From: a virus
Lineage: Duplodnaviria > Heunggongvirae > Uroviricota > Caudoviricetes
Strand: one strand, 5' to 3'
DNA: 32,977 nucleotides
Virus record (IMG/VR): IMGVR_UViG_2713896908_000011
Coordinates: 1-32,977 of that record
Shown: piece after piece, positions 3,101 to 32,977 of the stretch
Layout of the letters: each line of letters starts with the position of its first letter
Numbering within the stretch: position 1 is the first letter of the stretch
Translations under genes and position numbers: made by a program
Notes under the pieces: generated by a model
The model's input: only the letters and a program-made list of their open reading frames with translations
Told to the model about the DNA's origin: nothing
Database searches by the model: none

Positions 3101-3194
3101 CACCATTCAGAAGGTTTTTGATACGGGGAATTTCATTTTTAAACTCTGCCGCATCAATCCCCAAATCAATGACCAGGTTGGCTATCTGGTCCAT
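120..3194 (-). CDS. H: tail tape measure protein (lambda gpH-like)
   Basis: 1034-aa ORF (120..3224), Q/A/R/E-rich and coiled-coil-like, sitting between the G/T chaperone genes and M. Segment MDQIANLVIDLGIDAAEFKNEI resembles the lambda H N-terminus, so start is placed at the internal Met (3194); the track start at 3224 is the alternative. Confidence 0.9.
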   Translation of the reverse strand: MDQIANLVIDLGIDAAEFKNEIPRIKNLLNGAASDAERSSARMQRFMERQTQAARQTTQAASSAATAASVHAQTVEKNAQAHERMAREVEQTRQRMEALSQKMREEQAQAMALAEAQDKAVAAFYRQIDSVKQASAGLQELQRIQQQIRQARNSGGIGQQDYLALISEVTAKTRVLTQAEEEATRQKVAFIRQLKEQATRQNLSSSELLRAKAAQLGVSSAAEVYIRKMEQAGKATHSLGLKSAAARQEIGVLIGELARGNLGALRGSGITLANRAGWIDTLMSPKGMMPGAVIGGIAAAVYGLGKAWYDGQKEGEEFNRQLSLTGHYAGVTAGQLWTLSRAISGNGITQHAAAGALAQVVGSGAFRGNDIGMVARAAAQMERSVGQSVSDTINQFKRLKDDPVNAAKSLDNELHFLTATQLEQIRVLGEQGRSSDAARIAMSALAEETGRRTADIDNNLNALGSTLQTLSDWWKQFWDAAMNIGREDSLDAQIATLQEKVSRAKRLPWTASSSQVEYDQQRLNDLQEKKRQKDLQDAKEQAERNYQEQQKRRNAENAALNRMNETEAARHQREIARINAMQYADQAVRDAAIQRENERYEKALASGKKKTRETRNDEATRLLLQYSQQQAQVEGQIAAVRQSAGIATDRMTEAHKQLLALQQRISDLDGKKLTADEKSVLASKDELIQALTLLDVKQQELQKQTALNDLKKKTIQLTSQLAEEERAQRQQHDLDIATVGMGDQQRQRYQVQLSLRQKYQQQLEQLRRDSEQKGTYNTDDYRKAEQALTESLNRQLNENRRYWQQLEIAQGNWKNGAMRAFQNFTADADNAAGTAEQMLTAAFNSAGNALATFCTTGKLNFKSFTASLLSDLAKIMAQMAMMQAVKGIGSAFGWGSAAAASVTPNADGGVYQSADLSRYSGTVVNRPTFFAFAKGAGVMGEAGPEAILPLRRGADGKLGVVANIGGSGMAMFEQNNHVVINNDGTNGQIGPAALKAVYDMARKGARDEIQTQMRDGGLFSGGGR

Positions 3195-3495
3195 AACGCA
3201 CACCTCCGGAAATACCTTCCCCAAGATGCATCAGTTCTTCGTCCGTTCGCTCCGGTATCCCGTTCTCTTCCGGTAAAAGGCTGAAATCAGCCACCGCAGC
3301 ATCACTGCTGCCGGACACCATTCTCACGATCAATGCCTTCAGCGAGGCAAACTGCGCATCCATCCACACATCACTGAAGCTCTGCATCCGGAAATAATCG
3401 CCCCACTCACCAAGCTCAGTGGCCGACATTTCCGACAGCATCCGCCGCCAGTCTGCCCACCGGAACTCCCGGGCAAGCCGCATGACAAACTGCAT
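3166..3495 (-). CDS. T: tail assembly protein T segment (expressed as G-T fusion by -1 frameshift)
   Basis: 109-aa ORF in the -1 frame relative to G, overlapping the G 3' end and the H 5' end. This is the lambda G/GT arrangement; a slippery-like CCGGAAAAG lies at 3510..3518 just before the G stop. Confidence 0.6.
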   Translation of the reverse strand: MQFVMRLAREFRWADWRRMLSEMSATELGEWGDYFRMQSFSDVWMDAQFASLKALIVRMVSGSSDAAVADFSLLPEENGIPERTDEELMHLGEGISGGVRYGPDSQPGH

Positions 3496-3503
3496 TTCCC
3501 GCG

Positions 3504-3893
3504 TCAGGACTTTTCCGGCGTCAGCACCTCATGCTCCAGATCCCCGGCATTCTCAATGGCACCCATACCGCTCAGCGACAGAACCATCTCCGCCCCCGCT
3601 CCCAGGGCATCATACGACCATGTTGTAATAACGGATGCGCAAAGCGTCTCAACATCCTGAGACTGTTCCGCATTCCACAGTGAGCGGGAAACCAGCCAGG
3701 CATTGATATCCATCCCCATCCGCAGAAAAGCAATCTGTCGTTCAGCCTCCGGCAGTTCTCCCTCTTCGGCATCAAACTTTGCCGTTCGCTGCTGAACAAA
3801 CGCCAGATATTCAATTCTCTGCAGCCCGGACAGCTCACTGAGCACCACGGACTGCTTTTCATAATTAAACGTGCCCTGTTTCAGAAACATCAT
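3504..3893 (-). CDS. G: tail assembly chaperone G
   Basis: Translation from the internal Met (MMFLKQGTFNYEKQSVVLSELSGLQRIEYLA...) parallels lambda gpG as I recall it (MFLKTESFEHNGVTVTLSELSALQRIEHLA...). GGAG Shine-Dalgarno precedes the ATG at 3893; the track ORF extends to 3932 but that stretch holds a terminator hairpin. Confidence 0.8.
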   Translation of the reverse strand: MMFLKQGTFNYEKQSVVLSELSGLQRIEYLAFVQQRTAKFDAEEGELPEAERQIAFLRMGMDINAWLVSRSLWNAEQSQDVETLCASVITTWSYDALGAGAEMVLSLSGMGAIENAGDLEHEVLTPEKS

Positions 3894-3906
3894 GTTCTCC
3901 ACCTGC

Positions 3907-3930
3907 AAAAAAGCCCCGGATAACCGGGGC
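3907..3930 (-). terminator. rho-independent terminator after major tail gene V
   Basis: Perfect hairpin GCCCCGG-ATAA-CCGGGGC (plus 3913..3930); on the minus-strand transcript it is followed by a U6 run (plus A-run 3907..3912). Lies between the V stop (3951) and the G start (3893). Confidence 0.7.
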
Positions 3931-3950
3931 AAATGATGAGTATCGTCCTG

Positions 3951-4694
3951 TTAACCTGCGGCGCTGACAGCCACCGTAGCCACTGCCACAAAATCGCCGT
4001 CAGAAGTCATGCCCACAATGCTGACACTGCCCTGCTTCACGCCTTTCACCGTGGCCACAAGCCCGTTCAGAGTCACCGTGGCAGTCTGTGGATCTGTCGA
4101 ATGCACACTGATCGCTTTGTCACTGGCTCCGTCAGGTTTTACTGTAAAGGTCAGCGTGGTGGTTGCTCCCACTTTTACACTGGCAGATGCCGGTGCCACC
4201 GTCAGCCCGGTAACGCTCACGGTTTCAGTGCCTTCCTCTGCCAGATACGGACGCCCCACACCGCTGATTTTCACAGTGCGGGTCATCACGTCTTTTGAGG
4301 CAATGGTTTTACCCAGTGAGCTCAGCCAGCCGCGGAAAACATCAACAGTACCGTTGGGATATTTGATACGAAACGCGCAGACTTCACCGGAGTCGAACAA
4401 CTGAACCAGTTTTTTCTGCCCGCTGTCACCCGGACGCCAGGCCAGCGTCGCCGAAGTATCACCAACGGATTTCTGCCCCTGGGTTGTCGTTTTCCAGTCT
4501 GCATCCTCATCATCGAGATAAGTGTCATCTTCTGCATCAGCGGTCATTTCGCCAGGTTGCAGATCCTTCACCATCGCAAGACGCAGCCAGTCAGTGTCCG
4601 ACAAAGGGTTCGCAAACGCATCGCCGTTGCCGGTATACATCCAGAACGTCGTCCCCGCACCTTTCGTCTTTGCCAGTGGATTTGGTGTGGTCAT
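3951..4694 (-). CDS. V: major tail protein V with C-terminal Ig-like (Big_2-type) domain
   Basis: From the internal Met, MTTPNPLAKTKGAGTTFWMYTGNGDAFANPLSDTDW... closely parallels lambda gpV; AAGGAGGTG Shine-Dalgarno precedes the ATG at 4694. The C-terminal T/V/S-rich repeat region looks like the Ig-like domain. Confidence 0.9.
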   Translation of the reverse strand: MTTPNPLAKTKGAGTTFWMYTGNGDAFANPLSDTDWLRLAMVKDLQPGEMTADAEDDTYLDDEDADWKTTTQGQKSVGDTSATLAWRPGDSGQKKLVQLFDSGEVCAFRIKYPNGTVDVFRGWLSSLGKTIASKDVMTRTVKISGVGRPYLAEEGTETVSVTGLTVAPASASVKVGATTTLTFTVKPDGASDKAISVHSTDPQTATVTLNGLVATVKGVKQGSVSIVGMTSDGDFVAVATVAVSAAG

Positions 4695-4704
4695 TACCAC
4701 CTCC

Positions 4705-5118
4705 TTAATTCGTGTACGTGATCTGGTACGTGATTTCCGCCATCGCCCAGGTGGCCATCTCATTATCACGTTGATAGTTAAAACCGAGTGGGATCAGGGT
4801 GTCGATGAGTCCGGAAAGTGCCGGTACATCATTCAGGGCCGGGAAAATGGTGCTCTCCATCCACATATCCAGCTCTGAATCCGGTGCCTGTGCCCGGATG
4901 AAGACAGCAATATGCAGAACAGCCTGCCAGTCATCTTCATCCGTCATTTTTCCGGTGTACTGAGCATCACTCAGCCACACCGCCACGGCAGGCAGTTCCT
5001 GCGCATCAACAAATGCCGGAAGCCCGTCAAAAAACGTGGCGCTGTCTCCACACTGCTCCCGAAGGCGTGCCAGTACGACCTGGCGGATTTGTGTATGTCG
5101 GTTCATCGGGTCAGCCAT
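4705..5118 (-). CDS. U: tail terminator protein U
   Basis: Sequence ...ATFFDGLPAFVDAQELPAVAVWLSDAQYTGKMTDED...PDSELDMWMES... parallels lambda gpU. An alternative start at 5106 overlaps the Z stop (ATGA). Confidence 0.85.
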   Translation of the reverse strand: MADPMNRHTQIRQVVLARLREQCGDSATFFDGLPAFVDAQELPAVAVWLSDAQYTGKMTDEDDWQAVLHIAVFIRAQAPDSELDMWMESTIFPALNDVPALSGLIDTLIPLGFNYQRDNEMATWAMAEITYQITYTN

Positions 5119-5692: not shown

Positions 5693-5968
5693 TTACTCAA
5701 TAAAGATCATTGGCTTACCGTTAAAACGTTCATGCCGTGTGACCGTCCATTGTTGTCCGTCATAAACAACGCGATCCCCGCGCCGTGGGCGGTATCCCGA
5801 AGAAAACACCACCAGAGAGACCGCAGGTCCGGACAGAGCATTCAGTTCTGCCAGTGTTTCGCCCGGGATCACAGCCATATCGACATCATTAATCGAGGCT
5901 GTCTTTCCCATCTTTCTGACCGTGATCGCATCCATACGCGCTGCCAGCCGGGAAAAGGGATCAGACAT
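5693..5968 (-). CDS. head-tail connector protein (gpFII-like)
   Basis: 91-aa ORF directly upstream of Z in the late operon; assignment is by position and size only. Confidence 0.55.
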   Translation of the reverse strand: MSDPFSRLAARMDAITVRKMGKTASINDVDMAVIPGETLAELNALSGPAVSLVVFSSGYRPRRGDRVVYDGQQWTVTRHERFNGKPMIFIE

Positions 5969-6284
5969 TGAGTTTTACCGGCACTTCTTCTGCACTGGTT
6001 CCGGCATCTGCCCAGACAACCCCGACCAGCGGATCAGAGCCGCTGTTAGTCAGCTGAACTTTTCCGGACTTCAGATAAACCTTCTTACCCGTTTTCATGT
6101 CATCCGTTTTCAGTTTAGGCAGGATAAACACACCTTCGGTCATGCCGTCGCCTGTTTCACCCTGTGGAATATCGGTCAGCGCCACCGCAAAAACATCACC
6201 CACCTGCACCAGATCTCCGCTGCTGATGGCAGCACTGGCAACAATCGCCACCGTTTTTCCTTCTTCTACAAAATTCTTTGCCAT
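5961..6284 (-). CDS. small head protein, DUF2190-like (putative capsid decoration/cement or head completion)
   Basis: Start set at the internal Met (MAKNFVEEGKTVAIVASAAISSGDLVQVGDVF...) preceded by GGAGACAG. Lies between the capsid gene and the connector. Family assignment is from memory. Confidence 0.55.
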   Translation of the reverse strand: MAKNFVEEGKTVAIVASAAISSGDLVQVGDVFAVALTDIPQGETGDGMTEGVFILPKLKTDDMKTGKKVYLKSGKVQLTNSGSDPLVGVVWADAGTSAEEVPVKLNV

Positions 6285-6370: not shown

Positions 6371-8329
6371 TTACGCCGTACATTTCACCAGACCGCGGTG
6401 ATCAACTGGCGCGACACCGGCGTCAATACGCACTTTCGTTGTCACGCCATCCACACTGAAGCCCTCCATCTGATCAATATATGGCGTATCCACACCGTTG
6501 AGATAAGCCACTTCAATCGTATCGGAGCCTTTGGACGCAGCCAGGTAGAAGGTGGTCTGGCTGTTATCATCAAGACGAGGCTCTGCAATAACGGTCGCAA
6601 AATCTTTCACCGGGTTAATAATACCGGCGTTAATGTCAGCCCCCTTGACACTTGAGGAGCGAATGACCTGGTTAGCAACAGACTCCATCGCCGTCGGTAC
6701 CAGTACGAACGCAGGACGAATATTCAGATGACGCTCCCCCTCTTTCTGAACGCGCATCAACTGGCGGGCTTTATCCAGCGATGCCACGTCCATTGCAGCG
6801 CTCTCCAGTACGTTTGCATGTTTCGCTTTATCGAACAGACTTACATTATCTGTGGAGATTTTCGGGTTAGACGTCAGAATGGCATAAACCAGATCGGCAA
6901 TGGTGGATTTCGCCGCACGGCCCAGTTTCATCGGGACATCGGTCAGCATATTCAGATCATCATTGATAATGGCCTGACGGGTGATACTGAACAGCTCGCC
7001 ATAGGTCGCCAGTGCAATAGTGGCCTGTTTATCTCCGGTGGTGACGTATTTATATTCCGCCCCTTCACGCACCTGACGCAGAGCACTGAAGCCCCCCATA
7101 CCCACACGATGGGCAATTTTAAAATCAGACAACTGACCTTTCCGCGTCCACTGTTCATAGGTTTCAGGAGCATCTTCCCAGCCCTGCAGAATGGCTTTGT
7201 TCGCAACATCCAGCAGAATATTACCGAAGTCAGACGTACTGTGTGTGAACGCCGCACCGACCATCTGCATCGGGTTATAACCGGAAACCCCAATACCCCG
7301 TTCAGTCAGTGACATACGGGCATATTCACGCAGGGTCATCCCGTTGTAGACATTATCACGTTCGGTTTTTTCAAATCCGGCACGCGCCATCAGCGCCTGG
7401 CGGATCCCGTCCCCCACAAAATTACCGTTACCGGCATAAATATGAGCCGGGGTATTTTTATTGGATGGCGTGGACTCGCGCCCCATCTCGTTCAACAGCT
7501 TTTCGCGGGCCTGCTCCAGCGAACATTCAGGATCGGCAAGACACTGAGCCTGCAGCGTCTGATAACGCCCGCCAAACATGGCAAACAGATCATTAATACC
7601 GTTTACACGCGCTTTTTGCTCTGCCAGTACCTGCGCACGGATACTGTTTTCATCCACCACGGGTGCTGCTGCCTGCACTGGCGTCCGGGAGGCTGCAGGT
7701 TCATCATCCTGTACGCGTGGAGCACTGTTGCGTGGCGGAGTAATCATGTTTCGAATGGATTCCGGCATCTTTTTAAATTCCTCTGTACGTTTTGACTGAA
7801 TACATGCCATTGCCTTAACGGCTGGCGTTACCTGATCAGCAAATCCATGTGCCAGACATTCGGCACCGGACATCCAGGTCTCATCCGCCAGCATGGCAGC
7901 AATTTCATCGGTGGTTTTCCCGGTTTTCTGTGCATAAGCGGGTAACAGAACCGCCTCAACTTTATCGAGCAGGTCGGCATAGGTGCGCATGTCCTCCGCA
8001 TCACCGCCCGTAAAGCCAAATGGTTTATGAATCATCATGAAAGTGTTTTCCGGCATAATGACCGGGTTTCCCACCATCGCAATGACCGACGCCATTGACG
8101 CCGCCACACCGTCGACATAAACGGTAATGGACGCACCATGTGTTTTCAGTGCATTAAAAATGGCGATGCCTTCAAAGACATCGCCACCCGGTGAATTAAT
8201 ATGAAGATTAATGTGGGTGATATCGCCCAGTGCATTCAGATCACTGATAAACTGCTTCGCTGTAACACCCCAGAAACCAATCTCGTCATAAATATAAATA
8301 TCCGCGTCACTCTGGTGACCAGCCTGCAT
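6371..8329 (-). CDS. prohead protease (ClpP/S14-like) fused to scaffold-like linker and HK97-fold major capsid protein
   Basis: Start set at internal Met (MQAGHQSDADIYIYDEIGFWG...) 14 nt past the portal stop. N-terminal part has a ClpP-like signature (INSPGGDV, GVAASMAS, MMIHKP); C-terminal ~350 aa look like an HK97-type capsid protein. The track ORF (to 8590) overlaps the portal gene and is probably over-extended. Confidence 0.85.
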   Translation of the reverse strand: MQAGHQSDADIYIYDEIGFWGVTAKQFISDLNALGDITHINLHINSPGGDVFEGIAIFNALKTHGASITVYVDGVAASMASVIAMVGNPVIMPENTFMMIHKPFGFTGGDAEDMRTYADLLDKVEAVLLPAYAQKTGKTTDEIAAMLADETWMSGAECLAHGFADQVTPAVKAMACIQSKRTEEFKKMPESIRNMITPPRNSAPRVQDDEPAASRTPVQAAAPVVDENSIRAQVLAEQKARVNGINDLFAMFGGRYQTLQAQCLADPECSLEQAREKLLNEMGRESTPSNKNTPAHIYAGNGNFVGDGIRQALMARAGFEKTERDNVYNGMTLREYARMSLTERGIGVSGYNPMQMVGAAFTHSTSDFGNILLDVANKAILQGWEDAPETYEQWTRKGQLSDFKIAHRVGMGGFSALRQVREGAEYKYVTTGDKQATIALATYGELFSITRQAIINDDLNMLTDVPMKLGRAAKSTIADLVYAILTSNPKISTDNVSLFDKAKHANVLESAAMDVASLDKARQLMRVQKEGERHLNIRPAFVLVPTAMESVANQVIRSSSVKGADINAGIINPVKDFATVIAEPRLDDNSQTTFYLAASKGSDTIEVAYLNGVDTPYIDQMEGFSVDGVTTKVRIDAGVAPVDHRGLVKCTA

Positions 8330-8342
8330 CCTGAACCAGGAA

Positions 8343-9851
8343 TTATTCTTCGGACTGGTCGTCGGTGTGCTGCGGCTCCTGTCGTTTCGTTGCGGCACTG
8401 CTGCCTCCTTTATCACTGGCCGGATCGGTATCAAATACCAGATCCAGCTTGCGGTTTTCATCAATTTCGGCCTTGCGCCGACGTTTGACATCATCCGGAT
8501 TACGACCACCAGCACGTACCCAGTCTGATTCTGTCGCCGCTCCACCACGAATCTGGATTTTCCAGGCCTCAGCCTCCTTAACAGGGTCAATCCACGGCAT
8601 CACTGGTCCGGAATACACCGCGGTATACAGTGAAGAACGGTCAAGATCGCGGGGTAGCCTGATAACACCGGATGCCACAGCCTGTTTCAGCCAGGCACGA
8701 TACATCGGGCGGGTGACGGCACCAATAAACCAGTCCTGCAGGATCAGGTAGCCATCAGTAGACTCAACCAGTTCCTGACGCTGGGCGCTGTAAGTGCCGT
8801 TATAGTTGCGTGCCGTACTGGAAAAACTCAGACGACTGCCCGCCGCCACGGCACGCAACTGACCATTACGAAAAGTTTCAAGGTTAGGATTGGGACGATC
8901 CGACTTCACCATTCCGATTTCTTCGCCGGGTTTCAGATCGTCGTAAATAATGCCTGGCTGAATGGTAAGCTCGCGTTCATTCTCCTTGCTGTCATTACCA
9001 TCCGTTTCATAGCTCTGCCCGTCGCCTTTCCGGATGTACATCCCCAGAGCAGCGGCGATCCTTGCTGCAGTCAGCTCAGAATCTTCATACTCTTTCAGGG
9101 CGCTGAGGCGGATCAGCACACCGGACAATAAAGACGTCCCGCGCATCTGGTGCAGACGGCGAACAAATTTAAGATGCAGCATTCGCTCTGCATCCACTTC
9201 TTTGGTTTCCATCTGCCGTCCGGATACGGGACGGCTTTTATACACCAGATATTTTTCGGGACGCCCCCAGTCATCAACAAACACGCCCTGATTCAGCCTG
9301 TTGCTCTCATCACTGGTCATGGGAATAAAGTCCGGCTCGAGCGCCTCCAGCCAGAAATGAACACCGGCAGAAGGCGTCAGGCTGTTTATGCGCCCGGAAA
9401 CCATCTGGGCAAACACCTCACCATCGCGCAGCCAGGTACGCAGCATCAGACGTTCCAGCATCGGACGGGTAAACTGCCCGGTGACTTCCGGACTGACAGA
9501 CCATTCACTCCATCGGGTGCGTATCTCCGCTGCCAGATCACGGGCAATGGCCCCATTGCGTAATACCGGATGTGGCTCGACAATAATCCCGTTTTTCCCC
9601 ACCACCCGTTCTTCCAGCTTGTCAAATACACCAATGACCAGATCGTGGTTGTTATCAAGGTAACGGGCCTGCTCACGTAACGACACGGCCCCGTACTGGC
9701 TTAACTGGTCGGCAGTTCGGTTCTCCCGTCGGGCTTTGTGTGTCCGCGTCGTTTTTACGGCCTCATAAGCCTGGATCACCGCACGGGAACGCAGCCTTGC
9801 CGCTTTCCATCCTGGTGAAAAAACGCCAATCACATCATCAAGAATTGCCAT
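8343..9851 (-). CDS. portal protein
   Basis: About 500 aa between the gpW-like gene and the protease-capsid gene. Start set at Met (MAILDDVIGVF...) whose ATG overlaps the gpW-like stop by 1 nt; the track start at 9923 is the alternative. Confidence 0.85.
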   Translation of the reverse strand: MAILDDVIGVFSPGWKAARLRSRAVIQAYEAVKTTRTHKARRENRTADQLSQYGAVSLREQARYLDNNHDLVIGVFDKLEERVVGKNGIIVEPHPVLRNGAIARDLAAEIRTRWSEWSVSPEVTGQFTRPMLERLMLRTWLRDGEVFAQMVSGRINSLTPSAGVHFWLEALEPDFIPMTSDESNRLNQGVFVDDWGRPEKYLVYKSRPVSGRQMETKEVDAERMLHLKFVRRLHQMRGTSLLSGVLIRLSALKEYEDSELTAARIAAALGMYIRKGDGQSYETDGNDSKENERELTIQPGIIYDDLKPGEEIGMVKSDRPNPNLETFRNGQLRAVAAGSRLSFSSTARNYNGTYSAQRQELVESTDGYLILQDWFIGAVTRPMYRAWLKQAVASGVIRLPRDLDRSSLYTAVYSGPVMPWIDPVKEAEAWKIQIRGGAATESDWVRAGGRNPDDVKRRRKAEIDENRKLDLVFDTDPASDKGGSSAATKRQEPQHTDDQSEE

Positions 9852-15117: not shown

Positions 15118-15338
15118 ATCCTCACCCCGATGTACACGGATGGTGCAATATGTTTGAAAAGATCGGAGTCTACGGGTTATTTTTTACAGCAAACGTTGTT
15201 CTCAACGACGCTCAAAAAATAGAAGCTTAAAATAATGCGGTTAAATATTTTAAAAGAAAAACCATCTATTAAATAATAATGCGGGATATATTTTTCTATT
15301 TAGTGTACTGTATACGGCCATTTATACAGGAAAAGCCT

Positions 15339-15509
15339 ATGTCAGAACGTAAAGACTCAAAATCACGCCGTAATTATCTCGTAAAATGTTCCTGCCCAAA
15401 CTGTACCCAAGAATCAGAACACAGTTTTTCTAGAGTACAAAAAGGTGCCCTTTTGATCTGCCCTCATTGCAACAAAGTATTCCAAACAAATCTTAAAGCT
15501 GTTGCCTGA
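15339..15509 (+). CDS. small zinc-ribbon protein (CxxC...CxxC), function unknown
   Basis: Start set at the internal ATG preceded by AGGAAAAG (MSERKDSKSRRNYLVKCSCPNCTQ...LICPHCNKVF...). Two CxxC pairs; opposite strand to the flanking late genes. The track ORF starts at 15279. Confidence 0.5.
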   Translation: MSERKDSKSRRNYLVKCSCPNCTQESEHSFSRVQKGALLICPHCNKVFQTNLKAVA

Positions 15510-15568
15510 GTGTTTTGATTACTTACAAAGAGTTTTTATATTTTAATAATATATTTAAATCAGATAAT

Positions 15569-15593
15569 AAAAAACCCGCCTGCGCGGGTTTGA
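15569..15593 (-). terminator. rho-independent terminator downstream of the cold-shock gene (possibly bidirectional)
   Basis: Hairpin CCCGC-CTGC-GCGGG flanked by an A-run on the plus side, so on the minus transcript it is followed by UUUUUUAUU. Confidence 0.6.
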
Positions 15594-15790
15594 GATTGTG
15601 GTGCTTTTTGTGGTAGTTACCCACTTACGCACTTTGTATTGCTATGCCAGCAGTTAGCTTCTACTGTAAAACTATTCATGCAGCAAACCTGCACTTCACC
15701 ACAAAATGGGATTCAATACCCACAACTCTATCTGCATCTCTACTCAGGCATCAGCCTTCTTCGTTATCGTATACAGACAAGCTATGAATT

Positions 15791-16006
15791 TTAATCAGTA
15801 ATAATGACATTTGCTGCTGCAGGACCTTTAGCACCACTCTCTACAGAGAAGGTAACCTTTTGGCCTTCAAATAAGGTTCGATAATTATCATTCTGAATTG
15901 CAGAAAAATGCACAAACACATCTTTACTACCATCAACAGGAGAAATAAAGCCAAAACCTTTATCAGCGTTAAACCATTTTACTAAACCAGTCATTTTATT
16001 TGACAT
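15791..16006 (-). CDS. cspB: cold-shock protein, CspA family (CspB-like)
   Basis: [53 protein letters not shown]... carries the RNP1 (KGFGFI) and RNP2 (VFVHF) motifs and matches E. coli CspB (a Qin prophage gene) as I recall it. AAGGAA Shine-Dalgarno is present. Confidence 0.9.
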
Positions 16007-16170
16007 TCTACATTCCTTAACTTGAGCCTTTCGGCATAAATGATTTGTATAACAGAAACGACTTCGTACTTAATTGGAGAGACTCAAAGAAGGAATAAGT
16101 GAATAACACCTGAAATGAGAACTGCTTTAGTAAACTACTTCGTATATCGTCTGTTCTTCAAACCGACGCT
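16007..16170 (-). promoter_or_regulatory. long 5' leader of the csp gene with cold-box-like element
   Basis: CspA-family mRNAs have ~160-nt structured leaders. The minus-strand sequence here contains GAAGAACAGACGAUAUACGAAG, reminiscent of the cspA cold box (UGACGUACAGA). Boundaries are approximate. Confidence 0.4.
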
Positions 16171-16247
16171 GTCATTAACGCATAGTTGTACACCTGGAAG
16201 CAATGTTTATTTTAGACATCCAGCCATCTCCCCATTTAAAACACAAA

Positions 16248-16267
16248 AACCCGCTCATTAGCGGGTT
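16248..16267 (-). terminator. candidate tR'-like terminator downstream of PR'
   Basis: Perfect hairpin AACCCGCT-CATT-AGCGGGTT flanked by A- and T-runs; on the minus transcript it is followed by UUUUUGUGUUUU. About 50 nt downstream of the predicted PR' start. Confidence 0.55.
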
Positions 16268-16314
16268 TTCTACTTTTTCTCAACACCGGACATACAAAGC
16301 CCATTGTTGAGAAA

Positions 16315-16343
16315 ATTTTATCCATGTTTTTTGAAAAATGCAA
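16315..16343 (-). promoter_or_regulatory. candidate late promoter PR' (sigma70 -35/-10) just downstream of Q
   Basis: Minus strand reads TTGCAT - 17 nt - TAAAAT (-35 at plus 16338..16343, -10 at plus 16315..16320), 30 nt downstream of the Q stop, the canonical PR'/qut position in lambdoid phages. Confidence 0.5.
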
Positions 16344-16374
16344 ACATCATGTCGATATCTTCGGCGAAAATTAT

Positions 16375-17127
16375 TTATCTTGTCACTTTTCTCAACAGTG
16401 CTTCTGCATATGCTTCTTCCTGCCAGCACTTTGTAACCAGTTTATCAATAACATCAGCATACCCCTTGTACCACTGATAATCCGTCAGGTCCGGTACCAG
16501 TTTCTGGACATGATGCCGCGCCAGTGTGGTTGGTAAACGGCTAAACCGATTTCCATTGCAACGCCCACAAATCTTATAAACCGGCGTGCCATGAAGCCGG
16601 GTTCTTTTTTCATCCAGGACAATACCTTTACCCTTACACCCTCTGCACGCTGTGCTGACTTCTCCCTTACCATGGCAATGCTGACATAGTTCCTTCACCC
16701 ACTCTTCCTTGATAACAGATTCCCCGCTTCTGGAGTGTTTCACCACTTCGCGCAATACATTATGAAATCCAGTACCAGCACAATGCTCACAGCGAGCCTT
16801 ACTTGCCGCAGACCTGGAATAATCAGCAAAGGCAAAATTCACAAGGTAAGGGATGATCTGTAACCGGGTTTCTTCACTCAATTTATTCAATGTCGGGTTA
16901 TCCAGTGCCATCGCGTAATTGAGCAGACCTTCGATCGCAAACTGAGGATCCTGAACACCAACTTTTGCCAGGAATAAGGCAAAACCCAGTGGTGCTTTCG
17001 ACTGCACCATCCCCTGCGCAGCCATCACATCTGTAATTGTTAAACCACCCGAGCCTGTCGCCGGTGCGTCATCACTCAATTTTGGAGATTTTGGGGAGTA
17101 ATATTTTGGTAAGGCTTCAAGGTTCAT
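16375..17127 (-). CDS. Q: late-gene antitermination protein Q (phage 21/82-type family)
   Basis: 250 aa with multiple CxxC pairs (CEHCAGTG, CQHCHGKG, CRGCKGKG, CGRCNG) typical of zinc-binding Q proteins; positioned between the early/replication genes and the lysis genes. Confidence 0.8.
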   Translation of the reverse strand: MNLEALPKYYSPKSPKLSDDAPATGSGGLTITDVMAAQGMVQSKAPLGFALFLAKVGVQDPQFAIEGLLNYAMALDNPTLNKLSEETRLQIIPYLVNFAFADYSRSAASKARCEHCAGTGFHNVLREVVKHSRSGESVIKEEWVKELCQHCHGKGEVSTACRGCKGKGIVLDEKRTRLHGTPVYKICGRCNGNRFSRLPTTLARHHVQKLVPDLTDYQWYKGYADVIDKLVTKCWQEEAYAEALLRKVTR

Positions 17128-22748: not shown

Positions 22749-23375
22749 ATGGAAACGGTTGGTCAGCGTATAAAAGCTCTGAGAAGAGTTACCAGAACGT
22801 CCCAGAAAGAATTGGGTAAATTTTGTGGAGTAAGCGACGTTGCTGTGGGGTACTGGGAGAAAGACATCAATACCCCTGGTGGGGAGGCACTTTCGAAATT
22901 AGCGAAGTTCTTCAATACGTCAATAGATTACATTCTTTATGGTGCTGAGTTTGAAGGCAAACTCGTCACAAACATGCGCAGAGTTCCTGTAATATCGTGG
23001 GTTCAGGCTGGGCAGTTTACTGAGTGCAGGGCAGCAGAAGTGTTTAGTGAAGTGGACAAGTGGGTAGATACATCATTAAAGATTGGTGATAACTCATTTG
23101 CATTAGAGGTTAAAGGTGACTCCATGACTAACCCTAATGGCCTCCCAACAATACCAGAAGGCGCAACAGTGATTGTAGATCCAGATGCAGAACCTCGTCA
23201 TGGAAAAATAGTCATCGCTCGACTTGATGGAACAAACGAAGCTACAGTAAAAAAATTAGTCATCGATGGCCCTCAAAAGTTTTTAGTGCCATTAAATCCT
23301 CGGTATCCCAACATCCCTATCAATGGTAATTGCCTTATCATTGGTGTAGTCAAAGGAGTTCAATACGAACTCTAA
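22749..23375 (+). CDS. cI: CI-like repressor (N-terminal XRE HTH, C-terminal S24 LexA-like peptidase)
   Basis: N-terminal HTH (QRIKALRRVTRTSQKELGKFCGVSDVAVGYWEKD), candidate Ala-Gly cleavage site (VQAGQF), catalytic Ser in GDSM and Lys in ATVKKL. Confidence 0.9.
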   Translation: METVGQRIKALRRVTRTSQKELGKFCGVSDVAVGYWEKDINTPGGEALSKLAKFFNTSIDYILYGAEFEGKLVTNMRRVPVISWVQAGQFTECRAAEVFSEVDKWVDTSLKIGDNSFALEVKGDSMTNPNGLPTIPEGATVIVDPDAEPRHGKIVIARLDGTNEATVKKLVIDGPQKFLVPLNPRYPNIPINGNCLIIGVVKGVQYEL

Positions 23376-29546: not shown

Positions 29547-30656
29547 ATGGAAAACAAGACCAATAAGGAAAAAAGTGTAAGAATTAGGCTGGCTTTTAAA
29601 AGATGGCAGCGAAGTGTTTCCCGTCAAGGGAAAGAGTATTCGCAGTTTCGTCAACAAAAAAAATCTCAAAAGAAAAAAGATAATACCTTTATTCGGTTTC
29701 CATCTGAGTTTTCAATATATTCACCAGATAAGCCTAATTTTTTTGCGCACTCTCTACACTCGATAAATCACGTCAGGAATAAAAAATACAATCCTGATGA
29801 GAGATTATATTTAGATTTTACAAATACAAAAACAATAAAAATGGCAGCATTAGTAATACTTTATGCCAGTGTTGAAACTTCAATTCGTAAAGGTTTATCG
29901 TACAGATTATTATTTTCAACAGATTTTAAAGTCAATCAGCTTTTAAGAGACTCGGGTCTTGTCGCCTTATGTCGGGGCGAAAAATTAAAACCTGTCTTCG
30001 AAAACGTTGAAAACTTGCCCATTATTAGCGGGGTAGGAGGAGAATATAGAGATGAGATTATAGATTTCATCCAGAAAGAAATTTATAAAAACAAGATGAA
30101 ACCTGAAACAGAACATACATATGCAGATGCTGTTCAGGAAGCAATAAATAATGTTGGTTTACACGCCTATCCGCATAAAAATAATGATGAGAAACGATGG
30201 TGGCTTGCATGTCACGTAATTCATGACCAGCTGTATCTTGCTATATATGATGAAGGTGTTGGTATACCTGAAACTGTAATGCAAAAGACATGGTTTATGA
30301 GTACGCTCAAATCAAAATATCCAGATCTAAAGGTTGCGGTTAACGAAGAACTTGAGAGAATAGGTTTAGGTTATAAAGAGCGCTCTAAAGTAAAAGTTGG
30401 TATTGTTTCTGATGCAGTAAAAATAGCAATTTCTATGATTGGAGACGTAACCGGTACAGCCAATGATAAACATGGTCAAGGAAGTAAGAGTATTAAAGCT
30501 CTAGTACTAAATAATGAACATGGAAACCTTTGGATTTACAGTAATTTAGGTATGTTCAAGCTTTCTAATAAGAAAGGTGATAAAATTAATGAGTTAACTC
30601 ATAAAGTACCAGGTACTTTAATTCAGTGGAACATCAAGGTCAGCTATGAAGACTAA
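29547..30656 (+). CDS. GHKL-superfamily ATPase/kinase, RsbW/SpoIIAB-like (anti-sigma-factor-type HATPase_c) with novel N-terminal domain
   Basis: 369 aa with AGGAG Shine-Dalgarno. Bergerat-fold motifs in the C-terminal half: N-box AVQEAINNVGLHAY (compare EA.TNA..HAY of RsbW/SpoIIAB), G1-box IYDEGVGIP, G2-like ERIGLGYKE. The N-terminal ~190 aa are Lys/Arg-rich and not recognised. AT-rich codon usage. Confidence 0.7.
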   Translation: MENKTNKEKSVRIRLAFKRWQRSVSRQGKEYSQFRQQKKSQKKKDNTFIRFPSEFSIYSPDKPNFFAHSLHSINHVRNKKYNPDERLYLDFTNTKTIKMAALVILYASVETSIRKGLSYRLLFSTDFKVNQLLRDSGLVALCRGEKLKPVFENVENLPIISGVGGEYRDEIIDFIQKEIYKNKMKPETEHTYADAVQEAINNVGLHAYPHKNNDEKRWWLACHVIHDQLYLAIYDEGVGIPETVMQKTWFMSTLKSKYPDLKVAVNEELERIGLGYKERSKVKVGIVSDAVKIAISMIGDVTGTANDKHGQGSKSIKALVLNNEHGNLWIYSNLGMFKLSNKKGDKINELTHKVPGTLIQWNIKVSYED

Positions 30657-30978
30657 AAACATCAATGTTATCAAAGACTTCAACAGTAAGCCTTACGGGC
30701 GCTATCCAGACGATGGGGCAGGCTGTGGGGAAAACTTTCGCAAATATCTGGCAGGCTTTCTCAAAGAGTATGATTTAGTTCATGTTGAGTTGACTGGATA
30801 TAACCGTTATGGGCGTTCATTTATTGATGAAGCGTTTGGTGGCTTGATCCGAGTAGAAGGCTACACATTAAGCGAACTTAAGAAAAAACTAACTTATACT
30901 CATAAAGATATTAAGAGTATTGAGACCTTGATTGATGAACGATTGAATAAGGCAGAGAGTGATGCAGGAAGAGGTTAA
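30646..30978 (+). CDS. DUF4325/STAS-like small protein (putative anti-anti-sigma-type partner of the GHKL protein)
   Basis: 110 aa, ATG overlapping the upstream gene by 11 nt. Core VHVELTGYNRYGRSFIDEAFGGLIR matches the DUF4325 STAS-like pattern (LDF.GV...S.SF.DE.FG.L) as I recall it. Confidence 0.6.
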   Translation: MKTKNINVIKDFNSKPYGRYPDDGAGCGENFRKYLAGFLKEYDLVHVELTGYNRYGRSFIDEAFGGLIRVEGYTLSELKKKLTYTHKDIKSIETLIDERLNKAESDAGRG

Positions 30979-31456
30979 TTATACAAGTATTGTGATTGCT
31001 ATAATTGGTTGGCTTGTTGCGTCTTATTTCAACAATAGAGCATTCAAGCGAAATGATATTTCAAGGCAAAAGGATAAAATCTGTCAGCAAATAGAATCTC
31101 TTTTTGATAATGTTTTAGATAAGCTCTCTTCTAGAGATACTAAAGAATTAGAGCTGGATAATTTTTTAGCCTCCAGTGTCTCATTAATTGAAATGCAGCT
31201 GTCTCATTTATCACAAAGGATTGGTAAGAAATTATTATGTGATGAACAGTTGTCATCTATCAGATCAACACCTTTAGACTTGTTAAGCAAAAAGTGTGAT
31301 TATAAAAATGAACTTCATGAGATGAAGTATTCAATATTAGAGGAAATTGAAGGTAATTATACAAAATGGTTTTTTGATAGTTACTCAAAAAGATTCAAAT
31401 CCATCTTTGCATCAAAAAGAAGCACACCTAATACTGATCTGAATAGACTATCTTGA
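30962..31456 (+). CDS. single-pass membrane protein (candidate effector of the cassette)
   Basis: Overlaps the upstream stop by ~17 nt. N-terminal TM helix (SIVIAIIGWLVASYF) followed by a ~140-aa helical soluble domain with no recognisable motif. ATG at 30962 preferred over the GTG at 30959. Confidence 0.6.
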   Translation: MQEEVNYTSIVIAIIGWLVASYFNNRAFKRNDISRQKDKICQQIESLFDNVLDKLSSRDTKELELDNFLASSVSLIEMQLSHLSQRIGKKLLCDEQLSSIRSTPLDLLSKKCDYKNELHEMKYSILEEIEGNYTKWFFDSYSKRFKSIFASKRSTPNTDLNRLS

Positions 31457-31753: not shown

Positions 31754-32977
31754 TCAGTTGGGGTCTGAGCTAATACAAGCAACTATCAATTCAACCCTCT
31801 CCCACCATACCTGGTAGGCTTTACGCTGTTCTTCTAGATAATCGCTCTTGTCATAAACCTGCCATCCCCCTGGCAACTTATGACCAAGCATAATTTCTGC
31901 AATATGAGGCGCAGTAAGATCAGAAAAGTTTGTTCGTGCTGTTCGCCTCAAATCATGAAGAGACCAATGAGGGAATTGATACCCCAAACGTCGCCATGCG
32001 AACTGCATTAAATTGTAAGGCAGCGACTGCAATGATGTCCGACCAACTGGCTCCCTGCTTCCTTCCTTAGTAAAAAGCATATCGGAACCGTTGTTCATAG
32101 AGATAACGTATTTTATAAGCTCTTCAACCGGCCCAATAATGGGCCGCTTTAGTGGTTCGCCTGTTATCTCCCCTGTCTTATGTCGTTCTGGCGGTACAGT
32201 CCATACCTTATTAATGAAATCAAAATCGTCCACCCTAGCGGTAATTAGCTCTGAACTACGGCAGCCAAAATGCAACAATAGTTTAATGAAGGCCCGGTAT
32301 TTAGGAACCATTCGAGAACCATCGATCGCAGCATAAAGGATTTTAATTTCATCATGTGTCAGAAACCGTTTCTTCTGACCTTTACGGATATCCATATCTT
32401 TACCTGTGATATCCGACAGCGGGCGAGTTTCAATGAGCTTTCTCTTATACGCCCAGACATGGGCCTGCTTTGCGTTAATTAGCAATCGGTCAGCTATTGC
32501 TGGAGTCTTAGTGCTAAGAGGCTCCAAGACCTCTAACCAATCATGCAATGTAGCTGCATCGTGAGGGATACTCCCGATTTTAGAGAACAGGTGCAGTTCA
32601 AATGAGCGGAGTATCTGCTCAGCACCTTTTTTATTTTTTACACAATATGCTTCATACCAAGCACGGATCACAGACTCTACAGTCATGGCTTCAGTAGCTT
32701 TGCGTTTTTCTGCCTGCTTGACCAATCGTGGATTGCGGTTTGACTCGAGTTCACCACGGAGACGGATAACTTCTTCTCTGGCCTCTTTTAATCCAGTTGC
32801 CGGGTAAGTTCCGATATCAAGACGCTCACCTTTCCCTGCCCATTGATAACGATATTGGAACACTACGCGACCTTTCGGTGATACTCTGACAGACAGACCA
32901 TCACGATCGGATTTAACCAAAACCTTATCACGTTCCTTTCCAACAACTGAACGCAACCACGCATCAGACAGCGCCAT
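31754..32977 (-). CDS. int: tyrosine-type site-specific integrase (P4-like, with N-terminal arm-binding DUF4102-like domain)
   Basis: 407 aa. N-terminal MALSDAWLRSVVGKERDKVLVKSDRDGLSVRVSPKGRVVFQYRYQW... is P4-integrase-like. C-terminal catalytic elements HDLRRTART (HxxR) and a Tyr in ...GGWQVYDKSDYLEE. The ATG sits exactly at the window edge, so the true start may lie beyond. Confidence 0.9.
   Translation of the reverse strand: MALSDAWLRSVVGKERDKVLVKSDRDGLSVRVSPKGRVVFQYRYQWAGKGERLDIGTYPATGLKEAREEVIRLRGELESNRNPRLVKQAEKRKATEAMTVESVIRAWYEAYCVKNKKGAEQILRSFELHLFSKIGSIPHDAATLHDWLEVLEPLSTKTPAIADRLLINAKQAHVWAYKRKLIETRPLSDITGKDMDIRKGQKKRFLTHDEIKILYAAIDGSRMVPKYRAFIKLLLHFGCRSSELITARVDDFDFINKVWTVPPERHKTGEITGEPLKRPIIGPVEELIKYVISMNNGSDMLFTKEGSREPVGRTSLQSLPYNLMQFAWRRLGYQFPHWSLHDLRRTARTNFSDLTAPHIAEIMLGHKLPGGWQVYDKSDYLEEQRKAYQVWWERVELIVACISSDPN

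Follow-up and report, generated by a model that had tools for sequence, protein, structure and literature searches.

A Gifsy-2-type gene fusing a ClpP-like prohead protease, a putative scaffold and the major capsid protein in a lambdoid Escherichia coli prophage

The protease–scaffold–capsid gene of the Salmonella phage Gifsy-2 reportedly encodes a central domain of about 200 residues for which a scaffolding role was proposed by Effantin et al., who are also said to have fitted the HK97 capsid protein and lambda gpD into their Gifsy-2 maps. The gene is the subject of the study of Effantin et al. (2010, Virology 402:355, pmid 20427067), where it goes by the name 'tripartite capsid gene', and has been studied experimentally (PMC12315714, citing that work). 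Two further sources give a triangulation number of T=7 for Gifsy-2 (PMC8814770) and list it among the phages whose cement protein forms a trimer at each threefold axis (PMC8538268). The architecture has been known from Gifsy-2 since 2010 and has its own curated NCBI family.

Two other well-described heads provide points of comparison. Lambda likewise joins a serine protease of the ClpP clan to a scaffold and builds a T=7 shell with trimeric cement, but its protease is the S49 enzyme gpC with Nu3 nested within it, its capsid gene E is separate and belongs to another Pfam family, and gene D lies before E. In HK97, an N-terminal scaffold (the delta-domain, fused to the capsid protein gp5) is likewise removed by a phage protease, gp4, although this has the S78 fold, as opposed to the ClpP/S14 fold of the protein described here. 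HK97 uses covalent chainmail instead of a cement protein.

The stretch of DNA analysed here (32,977 nt, referred to as the window) is a lambdoid prophage. It encodes an integrase (31754-32977), a CI-like repressor (22749-23375) and Q (16375-17127), and its lysis cassette and head module are accompanied by lambda-like tail genes as far as the tape measure. The long minus-strand gene in its head module (Table 1) is very probably an ordinary E. coli member of the Gifsy-2-type tripartite capsid gene family (NF045540), its product maturing by the mechanism proposed for that family. The match to the NCBIfam model NF045540 scores 985.9 bits against a cut-off of 475 and runs the full length of the model, with residues 9-651 aligning to model positions 2-651 of 652, and the match to PHROG 133 is end to end. 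Matches of this strength, those to the Pfam domains included, lie well outside what chance would give. With it go a ClpP catalytic triad, a capsid domain and the expected portal and cement neighbours. A reading of the sequence alone (hereafter the sequence-only reading) had described an ORF of ~650 aa combining a ClpP-like protease, a helical linker and an HK97-fold capsid domain, and on this Pfam, NF045540 and the Gifsy-2 gene all agree.

Table 1 Features of the fusion gene, its neighbours in the window and related loci. Residue numbers are those of the 652-aa form; 23 is added for the GTG form. Positions are those of the window unless a locus (L) is named.
Feature	Position	Strand	Residues	Basis or remark
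Fusion CDS, ClpP-like prohead protease / scaffold / major capsid	6371..8398	-	675 aa	GTG 8398 start probable; ORF, NF045540, Shine-Dalgarno, PGAP
Stop codon of fusion gene	6371-6373	-		
ClpP-like (MEROPS S14-type) head maturation protease domain	7826..8305	-	9-168	Pfam CLP_protease; NF045542; ClpP alignments
Catalytic Ser78 (AASM)	8096-8098	-	78	ClpP motif alignment; Ser101 in 675-aa numbering
Catalytic His101 (MIHxP)	8027-8029	-	101	ClpP motif alignment
Catalytic Asp165 (GFxD)	7835-7837	-	165	ClpP motif alignment
Conserved segment after protease, AVKAMACIQSKRTEEFKKMPESIRNMIT	7739..7822	-	170-197	Nearly invariant in alignment A1
Hypervariable Pro/Ala-rich linker of variable length	7649..7738	-	198-227	Composition; alignments A1 and A3
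Helical scaffold-like segment, ENSIRAQVLAEQKARVNGINDLF...EQAREKLLNEMG	7478..7651	-	227-284	AF2 helices; motif conservation
Conserved stretch between scaffold helices and capsid domain	7277..7477	-	285-351	High conservation in alignment A1
HK97-type major capsid domain (Phage_capsid_4 / Mu gpT-like)	6383..7276	-	352-649	PF25209, PF10124, profile match
Portal gene, lambda family	8343..9851	-		PF05136 E 6e-82; TIGR01539 458 bits; PGAP coordinates
Head decoration / cement gene, DUF2190	5961..6284	-	107 aa	Pfam Phage_cement_2 E 2e-20; PHROG 122 head decoration; PGAP coordinates
Scaffold + Phage_capsid_4 chassis	L007 1655-3697			
Scaffold + Phage_capsid_4 chassis	L009 1921-4011			
Scaffold + Phage_capsid_4 chassis	L010 1681-3817			
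Scaffold + Phage_capsid_4 chassis	L006 1709-3790			
Scaffold + Phage_capsid_4 chassis	L004 4944-6956			

In the ORF listing of the window the frame is uninterrupted over a maximal extent of 6371-8590. Counted from the first ATG, at 8329, it encodes 652 aa (6371-8329, minus strand), and this was the extent given in the sequence-only reading; the frame and the stop are real, but translation probably starts further upstream. A scan of start sites found AAGGAGG at a 5-nt spacing upstream of a GTG at 8398 and no Shine-Dalgarno sequence upstream of ATG 8329. The 675-aa GTG form is the one annotated by PGAP in E. coli genomes, the record for phage cdtI being annotated with the ATG start and 652 aa. 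Just upstream of ATG 8329 the encoded peptide ends in KNNSWFR, which is kept in homologues down to 76% identity, and Gifsy-2 has Ile at the position of the ATG 8329 Met, so that translation in Gifsy-2 must begin further upstream. On these grounds the true start is most likely GTG 8398, 69 nt before ATG 8329. The added segment (8330-8398, minus strand) runs across the portal stop codon (8343-8345), and the 3′ end of the portal gene would thereby overlap the start of the fusion gene by 56 nt. With the portal gene ending at 8343 and the cement gene adjoining on the other side, there is no room for an additional protease, scaffold or capsid gene, and none is seen in the portal-to-cement interval in the ORFs, the domain matches or the PGAP annotation; the absence of a separate scaffold gene between portal and capsid, also noted in the sequence-only reading, therefore stands.

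Comparison with Gifsy-2 reveals nothing functional that sets the gene apart. The Gifsy-2 gene, STM1034.3n, has the same three-part architecture (69.6% identity, full length) and the same neighbours, with a lambda-family portal gene upstream, again overlapping, and a DUF2190 cement gene downstream whose product is 61% identical to that encoded here. All the virion genes from the large terminase to the tape measure are collinear in the two phages, at 43-72% identity. The differences lie in the host (Salmonella for Gifsy-2, E. coli here), in the N-terminal extension (23 aa here, about 33 aa in Gifsy-2) and in the variable linker, which is shorter here. The window also encodes a DUF1441 protein (the PGAP name); its counterpart in the same place in Gifsy-2 bears the annotation of small terminase subunit.

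As in other members of the family, a central region of ~150-200 residues, made up of a flexible linker and a helical putative scaffold, separates the protease from the capsid domain. In alignments A1 and A3 the linker lacks conservation, and indels in it reach about 19 residues. The helical segment was the only part to reach moderate confidence (pLDDT 64-84) when the 675-aa protein was modelled with AF2 from a shallow alignment of 14 sequences, every one at least 75% identical, the whole model having a mean pLDDT of 34.5 and a pTM of 0.20. The helical motif is common to fusion proteins of the ClpP type and the S78 type, and we infer that the central region acts as the scaffold. A single-sequence search with the middle region against the PDB gave no match. 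When the helical segment (7478-7651, minus strand) was compared with lambda Nu3 (L003 5132-5734) by hhalign, residues 104-158 of Nu3 were aligned with a P value of 0.0024 and a probability of 12%. The match is at the level of a motif only and a claim of Nu3 homology for the middle domain was not adopted on the strength of it, but the resemblance may possibly reflect distant homology and is kept as a lead.

The identity of the C-terminal domain is clear-cut. Pfam returns Phage_capsid_4 (PF25209) with an E-value of 8e-55 and, as a secondary match, the Mu-like gpT family (PF10124; E 4e-8), so that both Pfam families expected from the sequence-only reading, a Clp protease and a phage capsid, were recovered (CLP_protease and Phage_capsid_4). 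A profile built from ten diverse capsid domains of this type matched PDB entries 8RKC/8RKX (E 5e-13) and 9JOD (E 3e-10). The first two are the capsid and procapsid of Pseudomonas phage JBD30, and the capsid protein of this phage shows the elements typical of the HK97 type (PMC11445458). Judged by these profile matches, the domain is homologous to solved HK97-fold capsid proteins. The similarity does not extend to lambda gpE, for which hhalign found none (probability 0.05%). Residues 285-351, which link the scaffold helices to the capsid domain and are conserved, probably include both the site of maturation cleavage and the N-arm of the capsid protein.

How the protein is likely to mature can be proposed from its homology to Gifsy-2 and from what is general to HK97 and lambda head assembly. 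A 675-aa polyprotein would be translated from GTG 8398 and its C-terminal domain would co-assemble with the portal, as in Gifsy-2 and HK97/lambda, to give a T=7 procapsid in which the protease and scaffold parts face inward, one copy of each per capsid subunit. Crowding inside the shell would then activate the protease, which would cut off and degrade the N-terminal roughly 300-350 residues, itself and the scaffold included, and the fragments would leave. Terminase would package the DNA, the shell would expand, and trimers of the cement protein would bind at the threefold sites and stabilise the expanded shell. The family offers a neat natural system for asking how a capsid-tethered protease, present one to one with its substrate, is held in check before the shell has assembled.

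A ratio of one protease to each capsid subunit would be unusually high next to that of phages in which the genes are separate, and it could be asked whether the gene product is simply one polyprotein. Additional scaffold–capsid subunits lacking the protease might come from weak internal initiation or from regulated partial processing, and the middle domain might be a true Nu3 homologue; we consider this combination unlikely. Were the Nu3 homology true, the tripartite gene and lambda C/Nu3 plus E would be two states of one ancestral module, with ClpP, S49 and S78 protease folds swapped on a constant scaffold–capsid chassis. Internal in-frame initiation taken by itself, yielding a protease-less scaffold–capsid protein or a capsid-only protein alongside the full-length product, so that protease and capsid would not be one to one, is favoured by the same high protease copy number and has a precedent in lambda, where Nu3 is nested in C. 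It is nevertheless quite improbable in the present gene: in-frame ATG, GTG and TTG codons in the linker, scaffold and pre-capsid portions have Shine-Dalgarno matches of 5 nt at most, the strongest candidate near the start of the linker is an AGGA 10 nt before Met188, and a nested CDS is annotated in none of the relatives inspected. That the scan gave no convincing pairing of Shine-Dalgarno sequence and start codon makes a lambda-like nested scaffold gene unlikely, and a single polyprotein remains the reading that we prefer.

Residues 23-168 match Pfam CLP_protease (E 4.5e-36), and the head maturation model NF045542 (Clp_rel_HeadMat) scores 216 bits against a cut-off of 120. The AASM, MIHxP and GFxD motifs align with the catalytic triad motifs of solved ClpPs in the PDB, and Ser78, His101 and Asp165 are invariant in 14 homologues (alignment A1, 75-100% identity). 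The sequence-only reading had offered Peptidase_S49 as one possible assignment; this did not hold, the SppA model (SppA_dom) scoring 22 bits against a cut-off of 155, and the domain is of the ClpP/S14 type. Pseudo-enzymes occur among phage structural proteins, and this general occurrence, with nothing specific to add to it, is what speaks for the view that the ClpP-like domain is catalytically inactive and serves as a structural or scaffold module while another protease carries out the processing. With a Ser-His-Asp triad present, aligned to solved ClpPs and invariant at 75-100% identity, and with no other head protease gene in the head module, we regard that view as very improbable, and an active ClpP-like protease as the better account of the domain.

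The gene is widespread. Matches were found in 2,125 of 5,426 complete E. coli genomes (~40%); 1,443 E. coli records are at least 99% identical, and the identity to genes in many chromosomes is 99.8%. The product name that PGAP gives in E. coli, 'ClpP-like prohead protease/major capsid protein fusion protein', is that of the NF045540 family. Isolated phages cdtI, mEp460, Ayreon, Tritos and HannyBb have the ORF intact at 98.5-99.6% identity (at least 99% in cdtI and mEp460), and these phages and the E. coli prophages, at 98.5-99.8% nucleotide identity over the whole gene, carry effectively the same gene, the annotated start alone differing. The fusion is also intact in Gifsy-2 (70% identity), Fels-1 (72%) and a Vibrio phage (27%, at 98% coverage), as well as in Pseudomonas phages F10 and MD8, where identity is 60% over the scaffold and capsid part (residues 231-652). 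The order portal–fusion–cement recurs in Gifsy-2, cdtI, F10, RcOceanus and the Vibrio phage; Shewanella phage 1/44 likewise has its cement gene after the fusion gene, with no portal gene annotated beside the latter. A split ORF in related phages, which the sequence-only reading had said would undo its claim, is therefore not what is seen: the ORF is unbroken in the isolated phages, in ~2,000 genomes of E. coli and even in relatives as distant as 27% identity. That a frameshift or sequencing error has artefactually joined separate protease and capsid genes can be dismissed as exceedingly improbable, since against one Pseudomonas record (PAN70) annotated as disrupted by a change of reading frame, the only such record, and a separate protease in the distant Faecalibacterium phage Epona, which is of a different fold (S78) and so not a split version of this gene, there stand not only the E. 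coli genomes and the relatives but also many independently sequenced, viable phages and a curated full-length HMM (NF045540).

The fusion is therefore real and was rightly read, but it is already known and very common, and records of actinobacteriophages, and of Rhodobacter phages as well, routinely use the label 'Major capsid and protease fusion protein'. Its use is chiefly for annotation: phage records name the gene variously as protease C, Nu3, major head protein or Clp protease, and deposited records also disagree over the start codon. Two publications, on type I CBASS (10.1101/2023.05.21.541620) and on the phage D3 capsid (PMC12749128), have no bearing on the NF045540 family.

The window shares with lambda its gene-order logic and its portal and terminase families. 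By BLASTP, identity to the lambda proteins is 50-55% for Z, U and V, 33-37% for G and T and 29% for H, falling to 24% for the large terminase A and 22% for the portal B, and there is no match to C, Nu3, D, E, W, FI or FII. The head module is accordingly not of the lambda type: besides the unmatched C, Nu3, D and E and the low SppA_dom score (22/155 bits), the cement protein belongs to PF09956 and not to the gpD family. In this respect the contrast with lambda's separate C, Nu3, D and E drawn in the sequence-only reading is borne out. Its further conclusion, that the phage is a mosaic of a lambda-type tail and terminase with a fused protease–capsid head gene, is only loosely right: Z, U and V are 50-55% identical to lambda, but terminase and portal are only 24% and 22% identical to their lambda counterparts, and the whole virion region is collinear with that of Gifsy-2. 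The mosaic inference is overstated.

Evidence on how the head genes travel comes from phages with other tails. A unit of large terminase, adaptor, lambda-family portal, fusion and DUF2190 cement genes is found again in a Vibrio phage whose baseplate is P2-like. Phages of Bordetella and Faecalibacterium that have tail sheaths possess the portal-to-cement core of the unit, the fusion gene being of the S78 type in the former and the S78 protease a separate gene in the latter. Terminase, portal, fusion and cement are one old head module that moves as a unit, independent of tail type. Because the unit recurs with other tails, the fusion gene is no foreign element inserted among lambda head genes, and wherever modules meet, it is at the head–tail boundary and not around the capsid gene.

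Several of the loci with a scaffold and Phage_capsid_4 chassis (Table 1), namely Vibrio phage PQ189353 (L004 712-11792), L009 and L010, combine the head module with P2-like or contractile tails. The same chassis and the same portal–fusion order, at 31-34% identity, are found in Rhodobacter phage RcOceanus gp8, which is of the NF045541 type, and in the Bordetella phage protein. Against NF045541 itself (S78-type, type 2), the protein encoded in the window scores 402 bits, below the cut-off of 525, and residues 197-649 alone align. The protease carried on the chassis is ClpP/S14 in E. coli, Gifsy-2, F10 and the Vibrio phage and S78 in the Rhodobacter and Bordetella phages, Epona having a separate S78 protease. 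This distribution suggests that proteases have been swapped on a constant scaffold–capsid core. The fused and separate S78 arrangements are natural diversity matching NF045541, and not a sign of error in the gene described here.

Some other features of the window deserve mention. Following the cement gene is a small gene (5693-5968, minus strand) that matches the Pfam family 'Gifsy-2' (PF13856), described as an ATP-binding sugar transporter, and that PGAP names 'DNA breaking-rejoining protein'; it also has a weak Phage_attach match. Position and the Phage_attach match together suggest that the product is a head–tail joining protein, and both public names therefore look misleading.

Outside the virion genes, two regions are low in GC. 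One (15200-16400, GC 0.38) separates the Q antiterminator from the lysis cassette, a typical position for a lambdoid moron, and contains a cold-shock-protein-like gene (15791-16006, minus strand). The other (29547-31456, plus strand, GC 0.34) is a cargo region adjoining the integrase gene and encodes a 369-aa ORF with no Pfam match, a 110-aa DUF4325 (STAS-like) protein and a 165-aa ORF; PADLOC gave no match to any of the three. No tRNA genes were found across the whole window.

In the tail region, two genes on the minus strand (3504-3932 and 3166-3528) are like those for the lambda G and T tail assembly chaperones. The T frame is open from 3528, and a heptamer G_GAA_AAG (3516-3510) precedes the stop codon of G by 4 nt, a layout that fits the conserved -1 programmed frameshift giving a G–T fusion. 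The major tail protein (3951-4769, minus strand) is 55% identical to lambda gpV and, as in lambda, has a C-terminal Ig-like domain (Big_2).
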